Shown: piece after piece, positions 1,909-10,809 of the stretch | Numbering within the stretch: the stretch's first letter is position 1 | Layout: each line of letters begins with the position of its first letter | From: Chlamydiales bacterium | Lineage (GTDB): Bacteria > Chlamydiota > Chlamydiia > Chlamydiales > JBDQID01 | Length of the DNA: 11,139 nucleotides | Reading direction: 5' to 3' | Assembly (NCBI GenBank): GCA_047611865.1 | Contig: JBLFWS010000111.1 | Span: 1-11,139, forward strand | Notes under the pieces: model-generated | Databases searched by the model: none | Seen by the model: the letters and a program-made list of their open reading frames with translations, nothing else | What the model was told of the DNA's origin: nothing | Translations under genes and position numbers: made by a program

Positions 1909-2799
1909 TCATACCCCAGGTTCGCCTTCATGAGACAAAAGTTTTTCTATCGCACCGACGTTACCTTTAAATTCTGCCGCCTGTAAAGGTGTCATACCAA
2001 ATTGGGTTACCTTATTTATGTCAGCTCTGTGAAATAAAAGACTTTCTGTAACGGCTGTGCCATCAACTTCAAATAGTGCTGCTGCGTGAAGTGGAGTCAT
2101 TCCTAAATTGTTTGTCTGATCTACAAAAGCACCTTGCCTTAAGAGACTTTCTGCAATAAATCCATGCCTGTTAAACGCTGCTATGTGAAGCGGAGTATCC
2201 CCACGAGGATCAGCCCTGTTTACATCAGCCCTGTGATGTAAAAGCTTTGTCACCATAGATTCATGATTATTCTGGGTTGCTATGTAGAGCGGTGTCATTC
2301 CATCTCGATGTTCTCGATTTACAGAAGCTCCCTGGTCTAAGAGCCTGTCTGCAATAGCGCTATGTCCATTTTGTGCTGAGATATAGAGGGCCGTCACATC
2401 TTTAGAATTTTGTCTATTTACATCTACTCCTTCTGCCAGAAGACTTTTTACTTTGGCCTCATCCCCACTTTTTGCCGCAATGAAAAGAAGTGGATTAAAA
2501 TTAACACGACAAAGGGGGCAAGTGTCCTTTTTTTCAGTCCAACGCACGATCATTGCTTTTCTAAACATGTGCCTGCAAGGTTGCTTAACTAAAATATCTG
2601 GTGATTCAGTAAGATTAAGTGCCTGAATCATTAAACTTTCTTTTGACTTCTTTTCAACAACTTTACTTACGAGATCCAGATGTTCACTAAAAGGCCTTTC
2701 TCTGTAAGAGTGAGATAAATGTATATTAAATCTTTCTAGAGAAATTGGACACAGATCGTCAGAATTGTAAAAATTCGGATAACGGGGTTCTATTGTCAT
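1909..2799 (-). CDS. degenerate RING/U-box-like domain plus six ankyrin repeats; putative E3 ligase effector
   Basis: N-terminal CPISLE...PCRHMF...IVRW...TCPLCR. About six 33-aa repeats with TPLH/TALY/TPLY...LL..GA.VN consensus. AAGGT RBS-like motif upstream. Confidence 0.92.
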   Translation of the reverse strand: MTIEPRYPNFYNSDDLCPISLERFNIHLSHSYRERPFSEHLDLVSKVVEKKSKESLMIQALNLTESPDILVKQPCRHMFRKAMIVRWTEKKDTCPLCRVNFNPLLFIAAKSGDEAKVKSLLAEGVDVNRQNSKDVTALYISAQNGHSAIADRLLDQGASVNREHRDGMTPLYIATQNNHESMVTKLLHHRADVNRADPRGDTPLHIAAFNRHGFIAESLLRQGAFVDQTNNLGMTPLHAAALFEVDGTAVTESLLFHRADINKVTQFGMTPLQAAEFKGNVGAIEKLLSHEGEPGV

Positions 2800-2936: not shown

Positions 2937-4445
2937 TCAGATACTAAGTGTAAGAAGATCAATGGCGGCTTCCAATGAATATCTAGAAGGACTATGTGTT
3001 GCCACAAGAAGATCAGCATCAGGAAAAGCCTCAGCATCTCTGGGGTCCGCAAGAAGCAATACGATCGATTCTCTATTTTTCCCTATCTTCTGAAACAAGA
3101 CTGCCTGCACAGGCTGAAGAATAACTTGGTATGCGCAGAAAATAATTCTGTCTGCAGTAAGATTCAAATCCTCAGAAAAGTCGTCAACAAAATGAAAGCT
3201 TATCGAATCCCCCAGGGATGACCAATCAACTTTTTCGACATTTTCTTTCAAGCTTTTAGGAGCCACCACCAAGGTCTTGACAGCTTTATCTGTGAGTTTG
3301 CCCTTTTTCAAAAATATCGTAGATTTTTTTGCTACCTCTTTAGCCAGCTTTTGATGACTCGCCCATTCAGAGATCGAAATTCCCTCACTTCTGTCCATTA
3401 CTTTGTAACGCTGCTTCAATAATAGAATTCTTTCTACCGATTTGTTAAGCCTATCTTCTGAAATACGACCATTCCTTACCGCCTCAAGAACAGCATGGTA
3501 AATTCCTATAATTTCGTGTACGTGCTCTCTTTTGCCGTCTATAAAATCTCTTCCGCCAAAAAGCAGAATATCCACTCCTGCGTTAAAAGCTTGAATGGCT
3601 CCTTCAGCAATGCCCGAACAGCTATTCACAAATCCTCCCATAAAAAGCGAATCTGAGATAACGACTCCACGATACTGAAGATTTTGGCGAAGGAGGGTGG
3701 TAAGAATCTTTTCTGAGAGTGTCGCACAATTGTAAGGATCTATTTTTGGGAAAAGTATATGACCCGTCATGATGGCTGGAGCTTTTCCTGAAAGATTCTT
3801 AAAAGGTAAAAGCTCTGCAGCTTGCAATTCTTCCATCGTCTTATTGACTACAGGTAAAGAAGCATGTGAATCTACATCTGCGTCGCCATGCCCTGGAAAA
3901 TGCTTTGCTGTTGCTATAACTCGTGATTTCAAAAACCCCTCCAAAGCAAGAGCCCCCAACTTGCTCACCTCTTCAGGAACCTGTCCAAAAGAGCGTATAC
4001 CGATAACAGGGTTTTCGTAACGGGTGTTCACATCCACCACTGGAGAAAAATTCATATTGATTCCGGAAGAACGCAATTCTCTGCCCATGGCTTCTGCACA
4101 AGTTCTCGTAAGAGCGGGCTCTTTCGTTGCCGCTAAAGAAAAATTTCCGGGGAACTCGGTGAATCCCTTTTTCAACCTCGTCACACGCCCCCCCTCCTGG
4201 TCGATACCGATGAAGAGTGGTAAGACTCCTTGATCATTAGCTAATGCTTGCAAGCCGCTGCTTAGATTTGTAACTTGTTCATTGCTACTTAAGGCATTAG
4301 ACCATTCATAATAAATGACCCCTCCGATTCTCACCTCTTCAATTAACCTCCTTGCATCGCCATTTGCTTCTTCTCCGTGAAAAAAAGTCATAAACAGCTG
4401 CCCCACTTTTTCTTCCAAAGAGAGCTCTCTTTCCCCAATAAGCAT
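2937..4445 (-). CDS. nagZ: beta-N-acetylhexosaminidase, glycoside hydrolase family 3
   Basis: LEEKVGQLF, IDQEGGRV, NPVIGIRSFG, NagZ signature KHFPGHGDADVDSH and nucleophile motif VISDSLFM. Short C-terminal domain, no signal peptide, RBS AGGTG. Confidence 0.96.
   Translation of the reverse strand: MLIGERELSLEEKVGQLFMTFFHGEEANGDARRLIEEVRIGGVIYYEWSNALSSNEQVTNLSSGLQALANDQGVLPLFIGIDQEGGRVTRLKKGFTEFPGNFSLAATKEPALTRTCAEAMGRELRSSGINMNFSPVVDVNTRYENPVIGIRSFGQVPEEVSKLGALALEGFLKSRVIATAKHFPGHGDADVDSHASLPVVNKTMEELQAAELLPFKNLSGKAPAIMTGHILFPKIDPYNCATLSEKILTTLLRQNLQYRGVVISDSLFMGGFVNSCSGIAEGAIQAFNAGVDILLFGGRDFIDGKREHVHEIIGIYHAVLEAVRNGRISEDRLNKSVERILLLKQRYKVMDRSEGISISEWASHQKLAKEVAKKSTIFLKKGKLTDKAVKTLVVAPKSLKENVEKVDWSSLGDSISFHFVDDFSEDLNLTADRIIFCAYQVILQPVQAVLFQKIGKNRESIVLLLADPRDAEAFPDADLLVATHSPSRYSLEAAIDLLTLSI
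2949..3054 (+). repeat. 106-bp direct repeat, copy 2 (inside the nagZ 3' end)
   Basis: Matches 1450-1555 at 100/106. Confidence 0.97.
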
Positions 4446-4473
4446 TGAAAATCACCTGTTCTTCTGTTACAAA
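4445..4473 (+). promoter_or_regulatory. candidate sigma70-type promoter for the symporter operon
   Basis: TTGAAA (4445-4450)-N17-TACAAA (4468-4473) in the 62-bp divergent gap, overlapping the nagZ start codon and RBS. Confidence 0.35.
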
Positions 4474-4507
4474 ATATCACATCAATTTATTAAGCCCGGA
4501 TTCCTCC

Positions 4508-6028
4508 ATGACCCCATCTACGACATTCACTACTTTGGATTGGTGTGTAGTCGCTGCGTACTTCCTTATAGTCCTTATCATTGGAGCCTACTTTTCCCGA
4601 GGTCAAAAAAACGACAGGGGCTTTTTTCTCGCTAACCGATCCATGCCCATGTGGGCCGTTTCCCTTTCCATTGTTGCTACATCCCTATCGGCCGTGACCT
4701 TTATCGGCGCCCCTCAAGAAGCCTTTCGTGGAGACCTATCCTACCTCATCCTCAATCTCGGCGGGCTGATTGCCGTTGTCATTATCGCCCAATTTTTTAT
4801 TCCCGCCTTTTACCAATCCAATAGCCTCACTATATACGGTTACCTCGAAAAACGCTTCAACTCCAAAGTACGCATTGCTGCTGGGATATGCTTTTTAGGA
4901 GGCCGCCTTCTTGCATCCGGCGCCCGCCTCTTCGCAGCCTCCCTTGCTGTCTCCCTACTTTTTTATGGCAATGCTCAAGGGAGCACCAGCCAGCTTATTA
5001 CTTGCATTGTTATTTTAGGAGCTACCGGTACAATCTATACCTTTTGCGGAGGTATCAAAGCTGTGATATGGACGGATGTTCTCCAAATCTTTGTCGTTAT
5101 TGGATCAGCCCTTCTCAGCATTGCAGTTCTGTACCAAAGCATCCCCCTTTCTTTTGAGGGGATGATCTCCTACTTATCCAATAGTCCAACCCATATTGAT
5201 GGGGGGAACAAGTTATCTGTACTACATACAAGCTTTGACTGGGCTACACCTTATAACATCTGGACAGGCCTTTTCGCCATTGTCTTTCTCAATATTGCCA
5301 GCTACGGCGTCGACCAGGATCTTGTTCAGCGTATGCTCACTTGCAAAAATGCCTGGCAAGGAGGCCTCTCTCTCATTATTTCCAACGTCATTGGGATTGC
5401 TGTAGTCATACTCTTTATGATCATCGGCTTGATGCTTTTTCTATTCAATGACCCTGAAATAATGGGAAGCAATGTCGCAAACTTTCAAGATGGAGCCCTC
5501 ATTTACCCGCAATTTTTAATTCAACATCTCCCTTCCGGTGTATCTGGATTGGCGATGGCGGGACTTCTCGCTGCGGCAATGAGCTCACTCGATTCCGCTA
5601 TCAACGCAATGGCTAGCAGTGTCATTGCCGATGTATGGCGCCCACTAAAAAAAACTAATACAGAAGAGTTCGAAGAAGGTACAAGCACAGCACGATGGAC
5701 TGTCGCCGGTACGGGTCTTGCATTAACTCTTTTTGCTATCTTCGCCGCACTAAGCTATGACCCTAAATCCGACACACTACTGGGCTTTGCTCTTGGTGTT
5801 ATGTCCTATGCATACGCCGGACTCCTTGGAGTATTCTTCACAGGCCTTTTCACCACAAGAGGTAGTACTTTGAGCGTCTACAGCGCTCTTTTTGCCGGAG
5901 CCTTCACCGTCCTTCTTTTACAACCGTATATGCTTCCAGCATTATGCGGTTTCTCTCTAGCGTGGCCTTGGTGGATGGTATTCGGAACAACTGTAAGCTT
6001 TATAACTTGTATAACAGGAAAGAAATAG
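4508..6028 (+). CDS. sodium:solute symporter (SSS/SLC5 family), probably an amino-sugar or muropeptide-sugar importer
   Basis: Many hydrophobic helices and motifs FFLANRSMPMWAVSLSIVATSLSAVTFIG, GGIKAVIWTDVLQ, DQDLVQRML and AAMSSLDSAINA. ATG at 4508 is preferred to TTG at 4445, which overlaps the nagZ start. Substrate inferred from context. Confidence 0.95.
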   Translation: MTPSTTFTTLDWCVVAAYFLIVLIIGAYFSRGQKNDRGFFLANRSMPMWAVSLSIVATSLSAVTFIGAPQEAFRGDLSYLILNLGGLIAVVIIAQFFIPAFYQSNSLTIYGYLEKRFNSKVRIAAGICFLGGRLLASGARLFAASLAVSLLFYGNAQGSTSQLITCIVILGATGTIYTFCGGIKAVIWTDVLQIFVVIGSALLSIAVLYQSIPLSFEGMISYLSNSPTHIDGGNKLSVLHTSFDWATPYNIWTGLFAIVFLNIASYGVDQDLVQRMLTCKNAWQGGLSLIISNVIGIAVVILFMIIGLMLFLFNDPEIMGSNVANFQDGALIYPQFLIQHLPSGVSGLAMAGLLAAAMSSLDSAINAMASSVIADVWRPLKKTNTEEFEEGTSTARWTVAGTGLALTLFAIFAALSYDPKSDTLLGFALGVMSYAYAGLLGVFFTGLFTTRGSTLSVYSALFAGAFTVLLLQPYMLPALCGFSLAWPWWMVFGTTVSFITCITGKK

Positions 6029-6029
6029 T

Positions 6030-8069
6030 ATGCATAAAACCGTTAGTACATCTTCTAAATGGACTGAGATAGAAGAAAACTTCAAAGAAAAAAGCAATTT
6101 CAACCCATCTACCCCAAAAGATCTTCTACCTCTCATAGAACTTAAAAACGGCGAAGAAATAGGTAAACTCTCATCCTTAAGCTTTATCCTTTGGCTAGCT
6201 AAAAACCCCAAAGGAGTCGCTGTACTTCCCATAGGCAAAAACTCCCTATCGTTTCTCTCCAGCCTGACACACTATGTCGTCCATTGGACTTCTCCAGATG
6301 TTCAAGAAGAATTAAATAGCCTTGGGATCTTTATGGAAATGTTTCCTGATACAAATAACGTCAAGTTGGTCCAGCCCTTTATTTTCAATCCTCCCCTTCA
6401 TCAATATCAAACCAGTCTTTACAAAAAACTCCTCCATATTGCGGACAAACATATTCTTTCTTTAAACCTCGAAGGGGTCAAACCCAGCAAGGTAGAAAAT
6501 GAATTTAGCACTCTCTGCCAACATACCCTTCGGCAATGGGGTGGCATTGGTTTCTACCTTTCAGAAATAGGTCAAGATGCTAATATTGGCTTCAATGCTC
6601 CTGGGTCTAAATTTAAGGATATCACACAACAATATCAGCCACCATATTCCACCCTCGCACAGATAGCTTCTGACTTTGGTGGCATTGACCATGTCAAAGG
6701 GAAGACTTTACTAACAATAGCCCTCGGTGGATTCCGTTCCGATGCTACGATCATCATTACAGGTACAGGCGAAGACAAAGCCCTATCTATTAAAGACGCC
6801 ATCGAAAAAACCGACAACTCTCACTTACCTATTAGCGCCGTTCGAAAATTAGCAAATATACGCTTTTACGTCACTGAGGGAGCGGCCTCCAAACTTTCTT
6901 CCAAACGCGGTGAAATAATCCGCACAGAAACCCCCCTTAGTCATAGGACAATCGACGATACGCTCATTGATCTTGCCCTTGAAAAGAAAAAACGACTTTC
7001 AGACCTTTCTTCCAATGACCTCGAAAGTGATGAGATGGGCAGATCTCTCCTATCCCGCCTATCCGACAATCTCGAATCTACGATTTCACAATGCAGACAA
7101 AGACTCATCGACAAAATGGGATTAGGACTTTCTCTACCCAAGAAGAAAACAATTCTGCATACAGCGCCCCACCATGACGACATTATGCTCTCCTATTATA
7201 GTAGTATCGACCCTCTGCTTTCTGAGAACAAAAACCATTTCACATACCTCACCAGTGGTAGTAACTCCGTTACTGACAAATTTGTAAAATCTCGTCTGAC
7301 TCCCAAAAACAGAAAAACCTCTCCCTTGTCTTACTCTGAACTTATCAATAGATTCTCCAAAGCCTACGAGGGCAATAGCCAAGAAGAGATGAATCTTCTT
7401 GAAAAAAAAATAATCCAGCAAAAAAAGATGGAGTTGGACTCTGAGGAAGACCTTAAGCCTCTAAAATCTTTTATCAGAGAGTCTGAAGTAGATCGCCTTT
7501 GGAGTTTGAAACAGGTCCCCCAAGAATGTATCACCCATTTTCGAGGTAAGTTTTACTCGGACATCAAGTTTATTAACGAAGATGCTCGCGAATTTAAGAA
7601 ACACATTGACGCCATCAACCCTGATATTATCACGCTTGCTCTAGACCCTGAGGGCACAGGCCCCACAACGCATCATCTCGTGCAGCGTATTATCACTGAT
7701 AGCCTTCGACGCTTTCTTGGAAATCCTCCCATAGAAATCTGGGGCTACCGCAATGTATGGTTCCAATTTTCCTGTTCCGAATGCAACCTTATCATTCCCG
7801 TCTCTAAAGACGCCCTCCAGGAACAGAACCGTGCTTTCCTCTCTTGCTTTCCCAGTCAGTCGAAGGCTGCCTTCCCCTCCCCTCGCCACGACGGCCCTTT
7901 TTCAGAGCTCTCGGAAAAGATTCTTAGGGAGCAGTATGAGCAGATTGTAAGTCTTCTCGGAGAAGATTTCCTCACCGATCACCCCGACGAACGCATCCGC
8001 TCCGCCCGTGGATTTGTTTTCATTCAGACCCTCTCGGTCAAGGAAATCATCCAAAAGGTCACCCACTAA
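6030..8069 (+). CDS. fusion of a degenerate glucosamine-6-phosphate deaminase (NagB)-like domain and a PIG-L/LmbE-family deacetylase
   Basis: N-domain LPIGKNS, GGIGFYLSEIGQDANIGFNAPGS, TGEDKA and FYVTEGAASKL follow the NagB motif order. C-domain has HTAPHHDD, IRESE, PDIITLALDPEGTGPTTH and WGYRNVW. Starts 1 nt after the symporter stop. Confidence 0.88.
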   Translation: MHKTVSTSSKWTEIEENFKEKSNFNPSTPKDLLPLIELKNGEEIGKLSSLSFILWLAKNPKGVAVLPIGKNSLSFLSSLTHYVVHWTSPDVQEELNSLGIFMEMFPDTNNVKLVQPFIFNPPLHQYQTSLYKKLLHIADKHILSLNLEGVKPSKVENEFSTLCQHTLRQWGGIGFYLSEIGQDANIGFNAPGSKFKDITQQYQPPYSTLAQIASDFGGIDHVKGKTLLTIALGGFRSDATIIITGTGEDKALSIKDAIEKTDNSHLPISAVRKLANIRFYVTEGAASKLSSKRGEIIRTETPLSHRTIDDTLIDLALEKKKRLSDLSSNDLESDEMGRSLLSRLSDNLESTISQCRQRLIDKMGLGLSLPKKKTILHTAPHHDDIMLSYYSSIDPLLSENKNHFTYLTSGSNSVTDKFVKSRLTPKNRKTSPLSYSELINRFSKAYEGNSQEEMNLLEKKIIQQKKMELDSEEDLKPLKSFIRESEVDRLWSLKQVPQECITHFRGKFYSDIKFINEDAREFKKHIDAINPDIITLALDPEGTGPTTHHLVQRIITDSLRRFLGNPPIEIWGYRNVWFQFSCSECNLIIPVSKDALQEQNRAFLSCFPSQSKAAFPSPRHDGPFSELSEKILREQYEQIVSLLGEDFLTDHPDERIRSARGFVFIQTLSVKEIIQKVTH

Positions 8070-8082
8070 CTTAAGGCTTTCT

Positions 8083-10809
8083 ATGACAGAGCAAATCCCA
8101 CTCCTTTCCCGCCTGCATCACTTCCCGTATATCTTTTGTATTGACGGAGGTGGATCCAAAACCGTCATGCAAGTCATCAATGGAGAAGGGAAACTACTTC
8201 CTTTGAAGCAGAATGGACAAGTCGTAGAAGCTGTTCGCTCTGGTGCCGCTAATATCTCTACCCTCTCTAAAGATATAGTCAGTAAAAGTCTGAAAGATCT
8301 TTTCCATCACGTCACTGTTGATGGAACGGAGATTTCCACTATATTTTCCAACTGCGCCGTAATCGGTGGCTTTGCTGGTGGGGAGCACCCTGAAAAAAGA
8401 GAAAGCCTTCTCTCTATCTTCGAAGATATAGGTATTCCGAGAGAAAATGCCTTCATCCGTAACGATGCTGAGCTGGCTTTGGAACTCGTGGGCAATGCTG
8501 GAGCTATCCTCGTCAGTGGAACAGGTTCTATTTGTTATGGGAGAAATGGAAACGAAACGAAACGTGTGGGAGGCCTCGGGAGATATCTAGGTGACGAAGG
8601 CAGTGGCCATTTCCTCGGTATGCAAGCCGTTAAAGCTGCGCTAGAAGAAGAATTTGTCTGGGGAGAACATACAACATTAACCCTTGCGCTACAGCAGCAC
8701 TTTCAAATGGAATCTCTAGGACCTTTGGCCTCTACCATCAATAGTGGTAAAATGGCAGCCTTTGACGTAGCCGTTCTTGCAGCTCATGTTTTTCACCATG
8801 CTCAACGCGGGGATCTCGTGGCAAGGAGGATCGCCTCTGAAGGAGCTCACCATCTGAGTAAGCTCCTAGCATCACTGCTCACCCAACTGAAGATATCACA
8901 ATGCAACGTCTACCTCGTCGGTGGAATTTTTAAAATTCCCTATTCTGAACAATTCATTGAAACCATTCGCCAGTCACCGGAGGTTTCGAGCCTGGATGAC
9001 CCCCTCTTGATCAATGTCAGCGACACATATATCGCCACACAAAGTACTATGGAAATCCTACGCCGCAATCAGAACCCTCGTTTCTGTGGACTCAGTTCCC
9101 TTCCGCATTCTCCCTCTACCCTCTCTGAGGATTCCCTAAAAAAAGTCCACTGCGGCCAACTCTCGACAGAACAATCCCACTCCCAGACTTCACAACTACA
9201 CAAAGTCTTTCAAAAGTCCAGCATAGAAGGCTTTGCTCTCCTCCACGATATTGACAAACAAGTGACAGCAAAACTCGCCTCCTTTCTGGAAGAACATTTT
9301 GTGGGCCTGTCTAAAAAAGTTCAGAAAACGATCCGCAAAGGCGGACGCATCTTCCTCGTTGGAGCGGGATCCAGCGGCAGAGTCGCCGTCTCCCTCGCTC
9401 GTAAATGGAGAGAGCACTGGAAAAATGATAAGTACTCCAATGCTGTGATACCTATTATCTCAGGTGGTGGCCGCGCCTTTGTACGCCCCAGAGAAGGTGA
9501 TGAAGACTCCATTGAAAAAGGGAAAGAAGCTCTTGCAAACTTTAAGCCGTGCTCGGATGACTTGAGTATTCTAATCTCGGCAAGTGGTTCTGCAAAATTT
9601 CACTTGGGAGTAGCATTGGTCGCCCATGCACATGGATGCGAAACGTGGATCTTTCAAAATACTCCCGAGTTACCTGAACACACCCAAGCTATAGTCCAGG
9701 AATATCAGGTACTCCCTCTAGTTCTCGACTTAGGCCCTCAGGCTATCACTGGTTCCACCAGACTACAAGCTGCCAACAGTGCACAGCTCTTTCTAGGCCT
9801 TCTTCTCGACGCCACCATTAGCGATTATGAAGACCCCCTTAAACGGGCATTAGATGTCCTCCGAAACTACGAAAAATCTATTGATTCTCTTCCTCAGCAT
9901 TTCGACGATTTAAAAAGAATTCTGGATACCACCGTAGAAATCTTTTCTTCCAAATCAGCCAACTTCTTTAGACAATCTGATGAAACAGAAGAGGGTTACG
10001 TCACCTACATCAGTGGTGATGACACCCTTACAGAAATCCTCATTGACACTGCTGAGACCGCTCCAACATTTTCCCTCAATCCTCCAAGAACTATCGAAGA
10101 AAAGGAAAAAAAGAAAGCCGAGTACAGAACGTATCTTTTAGGAGAAAGCAGCAACAAGGAAACATGGGCAAATCTTATCGGACCTTACCTGCCTATAAAT
10201 ACACAAAAAGACTCTAACGACCTCTTACTTTCCCAAAATGCAATCGGATTTGGCTCATACCTTGATCGTCCTAAAGGAACAGGTAATTTTGCAATTGGAG
10301 TCTTTACAGGAAAACCTAAGAAAGTTCTGGAAACAGAAATCGAAGCCATTAAAACTATTAGAGGCCGCACTGCCATTATCTCCATAAATAAAACCCAAAA
10401 CCTGGATATCATCCATGATATCATCCATCTAGACATCCAAGACATCTACGAGGACCCTTTAAAACTCATCCCTTCCCTTGTCCTCAAGCAAACCCTCAAC
10501 TACCTTTCTAACGGAGCTATGATACTAATGGGTAAAGTCCACGGAAACATCATGGTTGACCTCTCTCCGTCAAATGACAAACTTATCGATCGTGCTGTAC
10601 GCATTGTTAAAGAAATTTACTCAGAAAATCACCCTGGCGAAGCTCTTTTGGATGATGAACTGGTTTTCCAGGCAATATCGAGAGCCTTCCATTATAAGAA
10701 AGAGCACGAGAAATATCATAACACCTCTTATCCATCTCCAGTAAAAACAGTTTTAGCTATGTTAGAAAACCGTTGCGGGGTACAAGAAGCTTTTCGAAAG
10801 TGTGTTTAA
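8083..10809 (+). CDS. fusion of a BadF/BadG/BcrA/BcrD-type GlcNAc/MurNAc kinase and a tandem-SIS MurQ/GKRP-like domain (908 aa)
   Basis: Kinase motifs IDGGGSKT, NDA, SGTGS, GGLGRYLGDEGSG and VGGIF. SIS motifs STEQSH, GAGSSGR, EGDED, ISASG, GPQAITGSTRLQA, DTAETAPTF and GKVHGNIMVDLSPSNDKL. ATG at 8083 with AAGG upstream is preferred to GTG at 8008. Confidence 0.9.
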   Translation: MTEQIPLLSRLHHFPYIFCIDGGGSKTVMQVINGEGKLLPLKQNGQVVEAVRSGAANISTLSKDIVSKSLKDLFHHVTVDGTEISTIFSNCAVIGGFAGGEHPEKRESLLSIFEDIGIPRENAFIRNDAELALELVGNAGAILVSGTGSICYGRNGNETKRVGGLGRYLGDEGSGHFLGMQAVKAALEEEFVWGEHTTLTLALQQHFQMESLGPLASTINSGKMAAFDVAVLAAHVFHHAQRGDLVARRIASEGAHHLSKLLASLLTQLKISQCNVYLVGGIFKIPYSEQFIETIRQSPEVSSLDDPLLINVSDTYIATQSTMEILRRNQNPRFCGLSSLPHSPSTLSEDSLKKVHCGQLSTEQSHSQTSQLHKVFQKSSIEGFALLHDIDKQVTAKLASFLEEHFVGLSKKVQKTIRKGGRIFLVGAGSSGRVAVSLARKWREHWKNDKYSNAVIPIISGGGRAFVRPREGDEDSIEKGKEALANFKPCSDDLSILISASGSAKFHLGVALVAHAHGCETWIFQNTPELPEHTQAIVQEYQVLPLVLDLGPQAITGSTRLQAANSAQLFLGLLLDATISDYEDPLKRALDVLRNYEKSIDSLPQHFDDLKRILDTTVEIFSSKSANFFRQSDETEEGYVTYISGDDTLTEILIDTAETAPTFSLNPPRTIEEKEKKKAEYRTYLLGESSNKETWANLIGPYLPINTQKDSNDLLLSQNAIGFGSYLDRPKGTGNFAIGVFTGKPKKVLETEIEAIKTIRGRTAIISINKTQNLDIIHDIIHLDIQDIYEDPLKLIPSLVLKQTLNYLSNGAMILMGKVHGNIMVDLSPSNDKLIDRAVRIVKEIYSENHPGEALLDDELVFQAISRAFHYKKEHEKYHNTSYPSPVKTVLAMLENRCGVQEAFRKCV

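Follow-up and report, generated by a model that had tools for sequence, protein, structure and literature searches.

A sugar kinase fused to a GKRP-like tandem-SIS body in a Chlamydiales bacterium: a candidate bifunctional MurNAc kinase and pseudo-dimeric MurNAc-6-phosphate etherase

Why should a sugar kinase be joined, in a single polypeptide, to a two-lobed body that resembles the glucokinase regulatory protein (GKRP) of vertebrates? The question is raised by a gene of a Chlamydiales bacterium (assembly GCA_047611865.1), located at positions 8083..10809 (+ strand, stop codon included) of contig JBLFWS010000111.1. The contig, of 11,139 bases, was analyzed at its whole length (hereafter, the window) and is part of a 3.59-Mb genome in 272 contigs, with a completeness of 95.5% and a contamination of 2.5%. 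A first reading of the DNA letters (hereafter, the original prediction) described the product as a kinase followed by two SIS domains, over which the active site of MurQ, the etherase acting on the 6-phosphate of N-acetylmuramic acid (MurNAc-6P), is split. Two functions were then proposed for it, either a single-chain MurNAc kinase/etherase or a kinase regulated by its sugar phosphate-sensing partner. The analysis reported here favors the former: the fusion is probably a bifunctional enzyme, a kinase of MurNAc (and of N-acetylglucosamine, GlcNAc) combined with a pseudo-dimeric MurNAc-6P etherase.

The frame that contains the gene is open from 8008 to 10809 on the + strand, with zero internal stops. 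The probable start codon is ATG 8083, 13 nt past the stop codon of the upstream gene (8069), which gives a protein of 908 amino acids (aa). Family matches and a structure model bear out the predicted fusion of a kinase with a GKRP-type tandem SIS, and a script located in frame, at the positions originally assigned to them, all the motifs on which that prediction was built. The kinase domain, of the ASKHA fold and BadF/MurK-type, comprises aa 1-326 (8083..9060). The linker (aa ~327-360; 9061..9162) is poorly conserved in the alignment and probably flexible; its aa 341-360, which are residues 1-20 of the model described below, have predicted local distance difference test (pLDDT) values under 50. 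It is followed by SIS1 (aa ~361-580; 9163..9822), by connecting helices and SIS2 (aa ~581-800; 9823..10482), and by the C-terminal lid helices (aa ~801-908; 10483..10806).

The etherase-like part was analyzed both at the level of families and of fold. Pfam GKRP_SIS_N (PF22645) matches aa 411-509 with 49.8 bits, the cut-off being 27. The solved MurQ chains 4s12, 1nri and 4lzj align in two segments, aa ~361-574 and aa 802-846, so that this part of the protein reads as a MurQ-like chain interrupted by the ~230 residues that separate them; the MurQ model TIGR00274 likewise covers the flanking segments only. At the lid, Pfam GKRP-like_C (PF20741) matches aa 822-848 with 22.9 bits, under its cut-off of 27.7. 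For the SIS2 region, no sequence-family match was obtained with Pfam, TIGR00274 or hhalign; specifically, Pfam GKRP_SIS_2 (PF22198) gave zero matches on the query at E <= 0.01, and profile-profile comparison of the alignment columns with hhalign revealed no similarity between SIS1 and SIS2 (probability 0.24%, E 0.26). Because this repeat test was negative, the assignment of SIS2 is based on the predicted structure, through its strand-helix pattern and superposition, and on the register of the motifs. The AlphaFold2 model of aa 341-908, obtained from an input of 18 sequences, has a pLDDT of 85.9 and a predicted template modelling score (pTM) of 0.88, and was compared, as a prediction, with solved structures. 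It superimposes on GKRP (4bb9) with a Z of 39.1 and a root-mean-square deviation of 2.8 A over 497 of its 568 residues (Foldseek template modelling score 0.71-0.73), on the two-SIS domains of GlmS-type isomerases with a Z of ~27 over model residues ~27-485, and on MurQ 4s12 with a Z of 21.7 over model residues 23-243 only. The model thus contains two SIS lobes and not one SIS fold, as had been anticipated, and suggests that aa 341-908 comprise SIS1, a second SIS fold and a lid.

The distribution of the MurQ motifs over both lobes is complementary. In the alignments with MurQ, the query sequence SLARKWREHW (9391-9420; aa 437-446) sits under LDASECPPTF, and EGDED (9493-9507; aa 471-475) under EGAED. 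SIS1, in which ISASGSA and GSTRLQ can also be recognized (STRLQA at 9754-9771; aa 558-563), retains the phosphate loop GAGSSGR (9361-9381; aa 427-433) and EGDED, and has lost the Asp/Glu pair, Lys441 being at the position of the first catalytic Glu of MurQ. In SIS2, the phosphate loop is lost (SGDDTLT stands in its place) and D-x-x-E is retained in the same register, in DTAETAPTF (10045-10071; aa 655-663), as D655 and E658. The distance from the Gly preceding strand 1 to the Glu spans 21 residues in MurQ, and the same span is found in SIS1, in GRIFLVGAGSSGRVAVSLARK (ending SLARK), and in SIS2, in GYVTYISGDDTLTEILIDTAE. Both MurQ-type catalytic glutamates, which presumably are Glu83 and Glu114 of the E. 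coli enzyme, are therefore present on separate lobes, as E474 (SIS1) and E658 (SIS2). The lid contributes GKVHGNIMVD..SNDKL (10531-10584; aa 817-834), which continues into IDR.

Human GKRP has the split layout that had been ascribed to GKRP: in the alignment, its SIS1 reads GGGTSGRMAFLMSVSF and REGTEDS, and its SIS2 reads MDGVECIHTF. A structural report lists as sugar-phosphate contacts of GKRP, in SIS-1, Gly107, Thr109, Ser110, Glu153, Leu178-Ser183, Gly256, Ser258 and Arg259; in SIS-2, Glu348 and His351; and in the lid, Asn512, Lys514, Leu515 and Arg518 (PMC4109836). We mapped these contacts through the alignment of the query with GKRP, where the chain index equals the human number plus 11. 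Glu153 corresponds to E474 and Glu348 to E658; Ser179-Ser183 to S499-S503; Gly256 and Arg259 to G557 and R560; and the lid residues Asn512, Lys514, Leu515 and Arg518 to N831, K833, L834 and R837. The residue differs at two of the positions, His351 corresponding to P661 and Ser258 to T559. By analogy with GKRP, E474 and E658 would line one and the same pocket. Its residues hardly vary among relatives: E474, D475, G557, T559, R560, Q562, D655, E658, P661, T662, K833, L834 and R837 are identical in 84/84 tandem relatives and also in 6/6 members of a distant tandem group (~517 aa), and N831 is kept in 83/84 tandem relatives. This conservation points to strong selection on the pocket and, together with the motif register, supports the proposal that the split motifs leave one composite site.

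With respect to the kinase half, Pfam BcrAD_BadFG (PF01869) matches aa 20-296 with 77 bits (cut-off 31.5), and NCBIfam NagK_SO3507 gives 88.6 bits (cut-off 370). The closest solved structure is PDB 8zo3 (E 2.3e-26, aa 15-282), named by its depositors N-acetylmuramic acid/N-acetylglucosamine kinase (MurK). DGGGSKT, NDAE, GTGSICYGRN and GDEGSG are common to both proteins; 8zo3 is a stand-alone enzyme of 306 aa, whereas the query kinase is half of a fusion. The motifs of the query kinase are DGGGSKT (aa 21-27), N127-D128, GTGS (aa 146-149), GDEGSG (aa 170-175) and G280-G281. The catalytic Asp, D128 in the query, is kept in all 25 kinases linked to tandem-SIS proteins, and in 22 of these the residue preceding it is T, S or G. 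In the query it is Asn127, as in 8zo3.

Is the association of the two halves a peculiarity of this genome? A search over 5.8 billion protein clusters returned 93 matches; when the 21 long ones were aligned, the domains proved to occur in two opposite orders. The named relatives come from metagenome-assembled genomes of Chlamydiota, Chlamydiales, Simkaniaceae and Rhabdochlamydiaceae; one of them, a 905-aa "SIS domain-containing protein", is assigned to Simkania negevensis. Local hidden Markov model searches over all retrieved proteins were then used to define classes of architecture. A tandem SIS is combined with an N-terminal kinase in 10 proteins and with a C-terminal kinase in 15, and has no kinase in 66, although proteins of this latter type may have an unseen neighbouring kinase gene. 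A single SIS is combined with an N-terminal kinase in 50 proteins and with a C-terminal kinase in 4. The remaining 48 were classed as single SIS without kinase, but at least 43 of them are really diverged tandem forms mislabelled by the coverage threshold, since they have at least 480 aa and the tandem signature, Gln plus DTTER[SA]PTF. Fusion of a kinase to the tandem form is hence rare (25 proteins retrieved), whereas single-SIS fusions are abundant in databases. Among 300 scored Chlamydiota genomes, a tandem homologue at E <= 1e-10 is present in 27, the source genome included, and in none of the 29 genomes of a family with genomes of 1.0-1.2 Mb (f4). Besides that of the query, five genomes of this sample encode a fusion with the kinase at the N-terminus, one encodes a fusion with the kinase at the C-terminus, and one has both genes adjacent, in different frames. 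The unfused state of both modules is represented by the one adjacent pair, in a Rhabdochlamydiaceae metagenome-assembled genome (L011:5390-8139), where the tandem-SIS and kinase genes are separate and have open frames overlapping by 55 nt.

The history of both halves was analyzed by means of quick trees. The SIS tree (IQ-TREE, LG+G4; 90 rows, 7 partial-coverage tandem rows left out) places the query within a clade of nine kinase-N-terminal forms, with a Shimodaira-Hasegawa-like approximate likelihood ratio (SH-aLRT) support of 83 and an inner five-row clade at 97. The kinase-C-terminal forms are placed elsewhere, interleaved with kinase-less ones, and the tree requires at least nine changes of architecture. 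In the kinase tree (43 rows, including 18 of the 54 single-SIS fusions), a single clade (SH-aLRT 99) unites the kinases tied to a tandem SIS, be they fused at the N-terminus, fused at the C-terminus or encoded separately, and those fused to a single-SIS MurQ lie apart. Taken with the adjacent-gene arrangement, the two trees suggest that the kinase co-diverges with the SIS module, in a partnership that would be old and would have been rearranged several times.

Fusions of a kinase to a single-SIS MurQ-type module share with the query the presence of both modules in one chain. They occur in Verrucomicrobiota, Ascomycota and, with ROK kinases, Bacteroidota, and are known from database entries with automatic names; 54 such proteins were retrieved. 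They differ from the query in having one SIS with Lys and DASE[IC]PPTF, a length of ~580-690 aa, and kinases of the separate clade. The ESM Atlas contains clusters of 51-193 members with this combination of sugar kinase and single-SIS module, among them Ascomycota clusters of 87-162 members (~670 aa, BadF kinase plus GKRP_SIS_N), named "N-acetyl-D-glucosamine kinase", and a Bacteroidota cluster of 193 members with a ROK kinase and GKRP_SIS_N. As versions with ROK and with BadF kinases exist, the kinase-etherase fusion arose with two unrelated kinase families. One JGI tandem record is already titled [quoted passage not shown]. A fusion both common and already characterised had been named at the outset as evidence against the original prediction; single-SIS fusions turned out to be common in databases, but none was found to be characterised. 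A literature search retrieved no paper on a MurK-MurQ fusion or on a chlamydial MurQ; it did not cover Veiga-da-Cunha et al. (2009), which may describe bacterial two-domain homologues or links to kinases.

In the window, the fusion gene closes a compact run of three + strand genes, with only 1 and 13 nt between them. The first (4445..6028, probable true start ATG 4508) encodes a sodium:solute symporter (Pfam SSF, 129 bits; TIGR00813, 184.2 bits). The second (6030..8069) encodes a 679-aa NagB-like deaminase with a weak region of PIG-L/LmbE deacetylase; its product matches NCBIfam PRK02122 with 128.8 bits (cut-off 384), nagB with 51.9 bits, and the PDB NagB 3hn6 with an E of 6e-9. This product is so diverged that Pfam shows no deaminase domain in it, and only a sub-cut-off PIG-L (E 0.011). 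Upstream and divergently transcribed (2937..4445, - strand) lies a gene for a beta-N-acetylglucosaminidase of the GH3 NagZ type (Pfam Glyco_hydro_3, 254.9 bits; NCBIfam beta-N-acetylhexosaminidase, 199.9 bits, cut-off 207), in which no signal peptide was seen and which contains KHFPGHGDADVDSH at aa 181, presumably the motif pattern of such enzymes. Elsewhere in the source genome, which as said is 95.5% complete, neither another MurQ-like gene nor another BadF kinase or NagB was found, nor AnmK, nor a NagA above cut-off; MurA is present.

The substrates and catalysis proposed in what follows are based on what was observed, namely the architecture, the split of the motifs, the conservation, the recurrence of the fusion and the genomic context. 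The symporter would import the sugar, and a cytoplasmic NagZ would split GlcNAc-MurNAc. The N-terminal ASKHA kinase would phosphorylate MurNAc, and probably GlcNAc too, at C6. The rest of the fusion would act as a single-chain MurQ pseudo-dimer with one active site, built from the phosphate loop and Glu474 of SIS1, Asp655 and Glu658 of SIS2, and Asn831, Lys833 and Arg837 of the lid, where MurNAc-6P would be converted into GlcNAc-6P and D-lactate. The NagB-PIG-L protein would then deacetylate and deaminate GlcNAc-6P to fructose-6-P, and its PIG-L part may substitute for NagA. That the kinase is fused at either end of the etherase-like body, or encoded by a neighbouring gene, points to consecutive steps of one pathway. 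[quoted passage not shown] As to the benefit of the fusion, proximity or co-expression seems more likely than a rigid channel, which is not claimed in view of the predicted disorder of the linker and of the pTM of 0.60 (pLDDT 0.74) of the ESM Atlas full-length model, a value below that of the SIS-body model, although the methods differ.

Outside the Chlamydiota, distant tandem-SIS genes are located among genes for SSF symporters, MurQ, AnmK and NamZ in three Planctomycetota loci. These (L025:2462-9227, L058:4087-13679 and L026:187-8128) share a peptidoglycan-sugar cluster, in which a single MurQ and AnmK on the same strand are followed by the distant tandem-SIS gene and then by NamZ. The SSF symporter gene is found in L025 and L058 (L026 begins inside the cluster), and genes for a beta-lactamase-fold protein and a sulfatase in L058 and L026. 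The symporters adjoining MurQ and AnmK in L025 and L058 are homologues of that of the window (E ~1e-54). The tandem family is thus associated with peptidoglycan-sugar genes across phyla, and the coexistence of MurQ with the tandem form indicates that their roles may differ.

Several observations weigh against a bifunctional MurNAc kinase/etherase. The Lys of the MurQ motif GS(S/T)R(M/L)K is replaced by Gln (Q562) in every tandem relative, and the NCBIfam MurQ models all remain under cut-off (TIGR00274, 135.3 vs 302 bits; PRK05441, 152.1 vs 168; PRK12570, 117.3 vs 255). Asn before the catalytic Asp, as in kinases of GlcNAc and glucose, could mean that GlcNAc is the main substrate; in the MurNAc-specific MurK of Tannerella forsythia, the pair is T94-D95, and a small residue before Asp is described as leaving room for the lactyl group (PMC10465942). 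The conserved glutamates do not by themselves demonstrate catalysis, since human GKRP keeps both Glu153 and Glu348, and rat GKRP is reported to have lost nearly all etherase activity (10.64898/2026.05.08.723886). Among Chlamydiota in which the tandem-SIS gene stands alone, five genomes with a completeness of 96-100% (G085, G115, G077, G253 and G147) gave no BadF-type (PF01869) kinase above cut-off. The neighbourhood is not conserved either: Pfam analysis of 52 of 89 flanking open frames (the outermost were dropped) of 12 relatives revealed amino-sugar-related neighbours at three loci only, namely a GH18 gene at L102 and SSF-family symporter genes ~3 kb away at L100 and L103. Phmmer searches with the window proteins did not find a conserved NagZ/SSF/NagB cluster in Chlamydiota relatives (14 and 12 loci), and the NagB-PIG-L query gave no match in the five other genomes carrying the same fusion, all five of which have a NagZ-like gene elsewhere. 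Lastly, the location of a tandem-SIS gene beside a canonical single MurQ in the three Planctomycetota loci suggests that the two do not duplicate each other's function, at least as regards this distant subfamily.

The replacement of Lys by Gln had been the reason for doubting the activity of this protein from the outset. As Gln is found at this position in all the 84 tandem relatives and in the six distant ones, it is characteristic of the bacterial tandem family as a whole and not a lesion of the query gene, which answers the doubt in part only. Lys is found, together with DASE[IC]PPTF, in all kinase fusions to single-SIS MurQ, and also in the single MurQs that lie beside tandem genes in Planctomycetota. 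Human GKRP too has Lys at the position of Gln562, and that Lys is outside the published contact list. It is chiefly because of Gln562 that we keep a differing substrate preference as a possibility: the tandem SIS might be a lyase or hydrolase that performs the same chemistry on a substituted sugar phosphate other than MurNAc-6P, made by the fused kinase. Both the sub-cut-off scores of the MurQ family models and the adjacency of a canonical MurQ in the Planctomycetota loci speak for this alternative. Those same clusters, however, are peptidoglycan-sugar clusters, with AnmK, NamZ, MurQ and SSF; the neighbours in the window are NagZ and NagB-PIG-L; the source genome encodes no other MurQ-like protein; and the GKRP-type protein of Naegleria is reported to cleave MurNAc-6P. 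Taking these data into account, we regard another substrate as unlikely.

The regulatory function considered in the original prediction would imply a tandem SIS that has lost catalysis and exerts control over the GlcNAc kinase to which it is attached, with a sugar phosphate as its ligand, in the way that vertebrate GKRP controls glucokinase. Its body plan and ligand pocket match those of GKRP, and human GKRP also keeps both glutamates, while rat GKRP is reported to be almost inactive as an etherase. In addition, NagZ, a GlcNAc kinase and NagB-PIG-L would make up a complete GlcNAc pathway without an etherase, and the N-D pair of the query kinase is that of GlcNAc kinases. Nevertheless, a preprint on GKRP presents the binding of glucokinase as an innovation of jawed vertebrates, achieved by means of an inserted loop (10.64898/2026.05.08.723886), and the kinase of the fusion comes from a different branch of the ASKHA fold, being BadF/MurK-type (PF01869) and not hexokinase-type. 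The sequence E-T-A-P-T-F of SIS2 is closer to E-C-P-P-T-F of MurQ than to E-C-I-H-T-F of GKRP, and the small residue that precedes the catalytic Asp in 22 of the 25 linked kinases is MurK-like. Since all five relatives checked have an unfused tandem SIS and lack a BadF kinase above cut-off, in most of the family there would be no such kinase to regulate. A regulated kinase is accordingly quite improbable in our opinion, and the GKRP-glucokinase parallel, which had been read as a Rosetta-stone fusion, is best seen as a coincidence between consecutive enzymes. Of the two functions proposed at first, the kinase/etherase is the one that better fits the joining of the modules in both orders, their occurrence as adjacent genes, the NagZ, symporter and NagB-PIG-L genes and the lack of another MurQ-like gene; a regulatory module finds no support. 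That the fusion is an artefact, an assembly error or a frameshift merging two neighbouring genes, would agree with the fragmentation of the assembly (272 contigs) and with the one relative in which the split genes are adjacent, but is scarcely credible given that the frame runs unbroken over the 30-35 residue linker, that the same continuous architecture occurs in nine other kinase-N-terminal proteins, from other assemblies, and in five further genomes, and that, of the 10 kinase-N-terminal forms, 9 group in the SIS tree by their SIS parts.

The candidate kinase/etherase was compared with systems already described. An operon characterised in T. forsythia, murT-murK-murQ, encodes a sodium symporter, a PF01869 MurNAc kinase and an etherase (PMC5790795). 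The pathway proposed here follows the same logic of import, 6-phosphorylation and lactate removal. The loci differ in that here a single polypeptide comprises kinase and etherase, the latter as a tandem-SIS pseudo-dimer, and in that there is an additional, inserted gene for NagB-PIG-L and a divergent transcription of NagZ. The query kinase has N-D where T. forsythia MurK has T-D, and is closer to 8zo3; the solved-structure search with the query retrieved no T. forsythia chain at E 0.01. MurQ itself is described as a homodimer of chains with a single SIS domain (10.64898/2026.05.08.723886). The query SIS1 plus lid align over the whole length of MurQ and retain the phosphate loop, EGxED, GSxR and SNxKL..R. 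In contrast to MurQ, in which one SIS is followed by helices, the query carries an inserted and very diverged second SIS domain of ~230 residues, has Lys in SIS1 at the glutamate of DASE and Gln for Lys after GSTRL, and scores below the cut-offs of the family. With GKRP and the Naegleria gruberi GKRP-like etherase it shares the order SIS1-SIS2-lid, the ligand pocket and the way in which the motifs are divided between the halves. The identity between GKRP and the query is 17-23%, and Pfam GKRP_SIS_2 leaves the SIS2 of the query unmatched. GKRP has Lys and E-C, as does MurQ, whereas the bacterial tandem family has Gln and E-T/R; it lacks a kinase fusion, and its partner glucokinase is hexokinase-type.

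Tandem-SIS proteins with the Gln signature are found in Chlamydiota, Planctomycetota, Verrucomicrobiota, Armatimonadota and Acidobacteriota; to judge from Atlas clusters, Lentisphaerota and Bdellovibrionota would have them as well. We tentatively consider the possibility, which at present is doubtful, that they constitute an old bacterial family of single-chain pseudo-dimeric etherases, which would share with eukaryotic GKRP the duplication from which both stem. In that case, the two-lobed body would be a bacterial invention acquired by eukaryotes, possibly via amoeba symbionts of the Planctomycetes-Verrucomicrobia-Chlamydiae group, and not a eukaryotic construction out of a bacterial murQ. 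If the bacterial and eukaryotic bodies arose separately, they would have evolved in parallel towards one and the same split of the active site. The single-chain MurQ pseudo-dimer is not peculiar to eukaryotic GKRP: bacteria have a family of their own, distinguished by its signature, on which no study was found in the literature searched and which bears on the origin of GKRP. The parts are familiar enzymes in a rare arrangement, and nothing known is overturned. With the kinase at either end of the etherase-like body or encoded by a neighbouring gene, the system is a clear case of coupling by fusion, and the cluster of the window would represent a compact candidate route by which MurNAc and GlcNAc are used; the bacterium, which is chlamydia-like and probably intracellular, also makes peptidoglycan of its own, as MurA suggests. 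The sugar could come from turnover of its own wall or, more speculatively, from bacterial debris inside a bacterivorous host.

Some other features of the window are worth mentioning. The cluster formed by the three + strand genes (4445-10809) has a G+C content of 45.0%, the genome mean being 41.5%; this value is reached by 2.75% of 1092 windows of the same size, and can be taken as a mild, not decisive, hint of foreign origin or of differing constraints. A scan for promoters and terminators returned 13 and 9 sites, with 10.1 and 6.7 expected, and neither a tRNA nor an Rfam family was found in the window. Its first 1900 positions contain small open frames (83-127 aa) without a Pfam or NCBIfam match. 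Between this region and the NagZ-type gene, positions 1909-2799 (- strand) encode a protein of 296 aa in which four ankyrin repeats (Pfam Ank, 120 bits) are combined with a zinc finger of the RING type that remains just under Pfam cut-offs; its matches to NCBIfam Legionella Ank effectors are far under cut-off. By its domains, it is a possible eukaryote-like ubiquitin-ligase effector, of a type known from intracellular bacteria.

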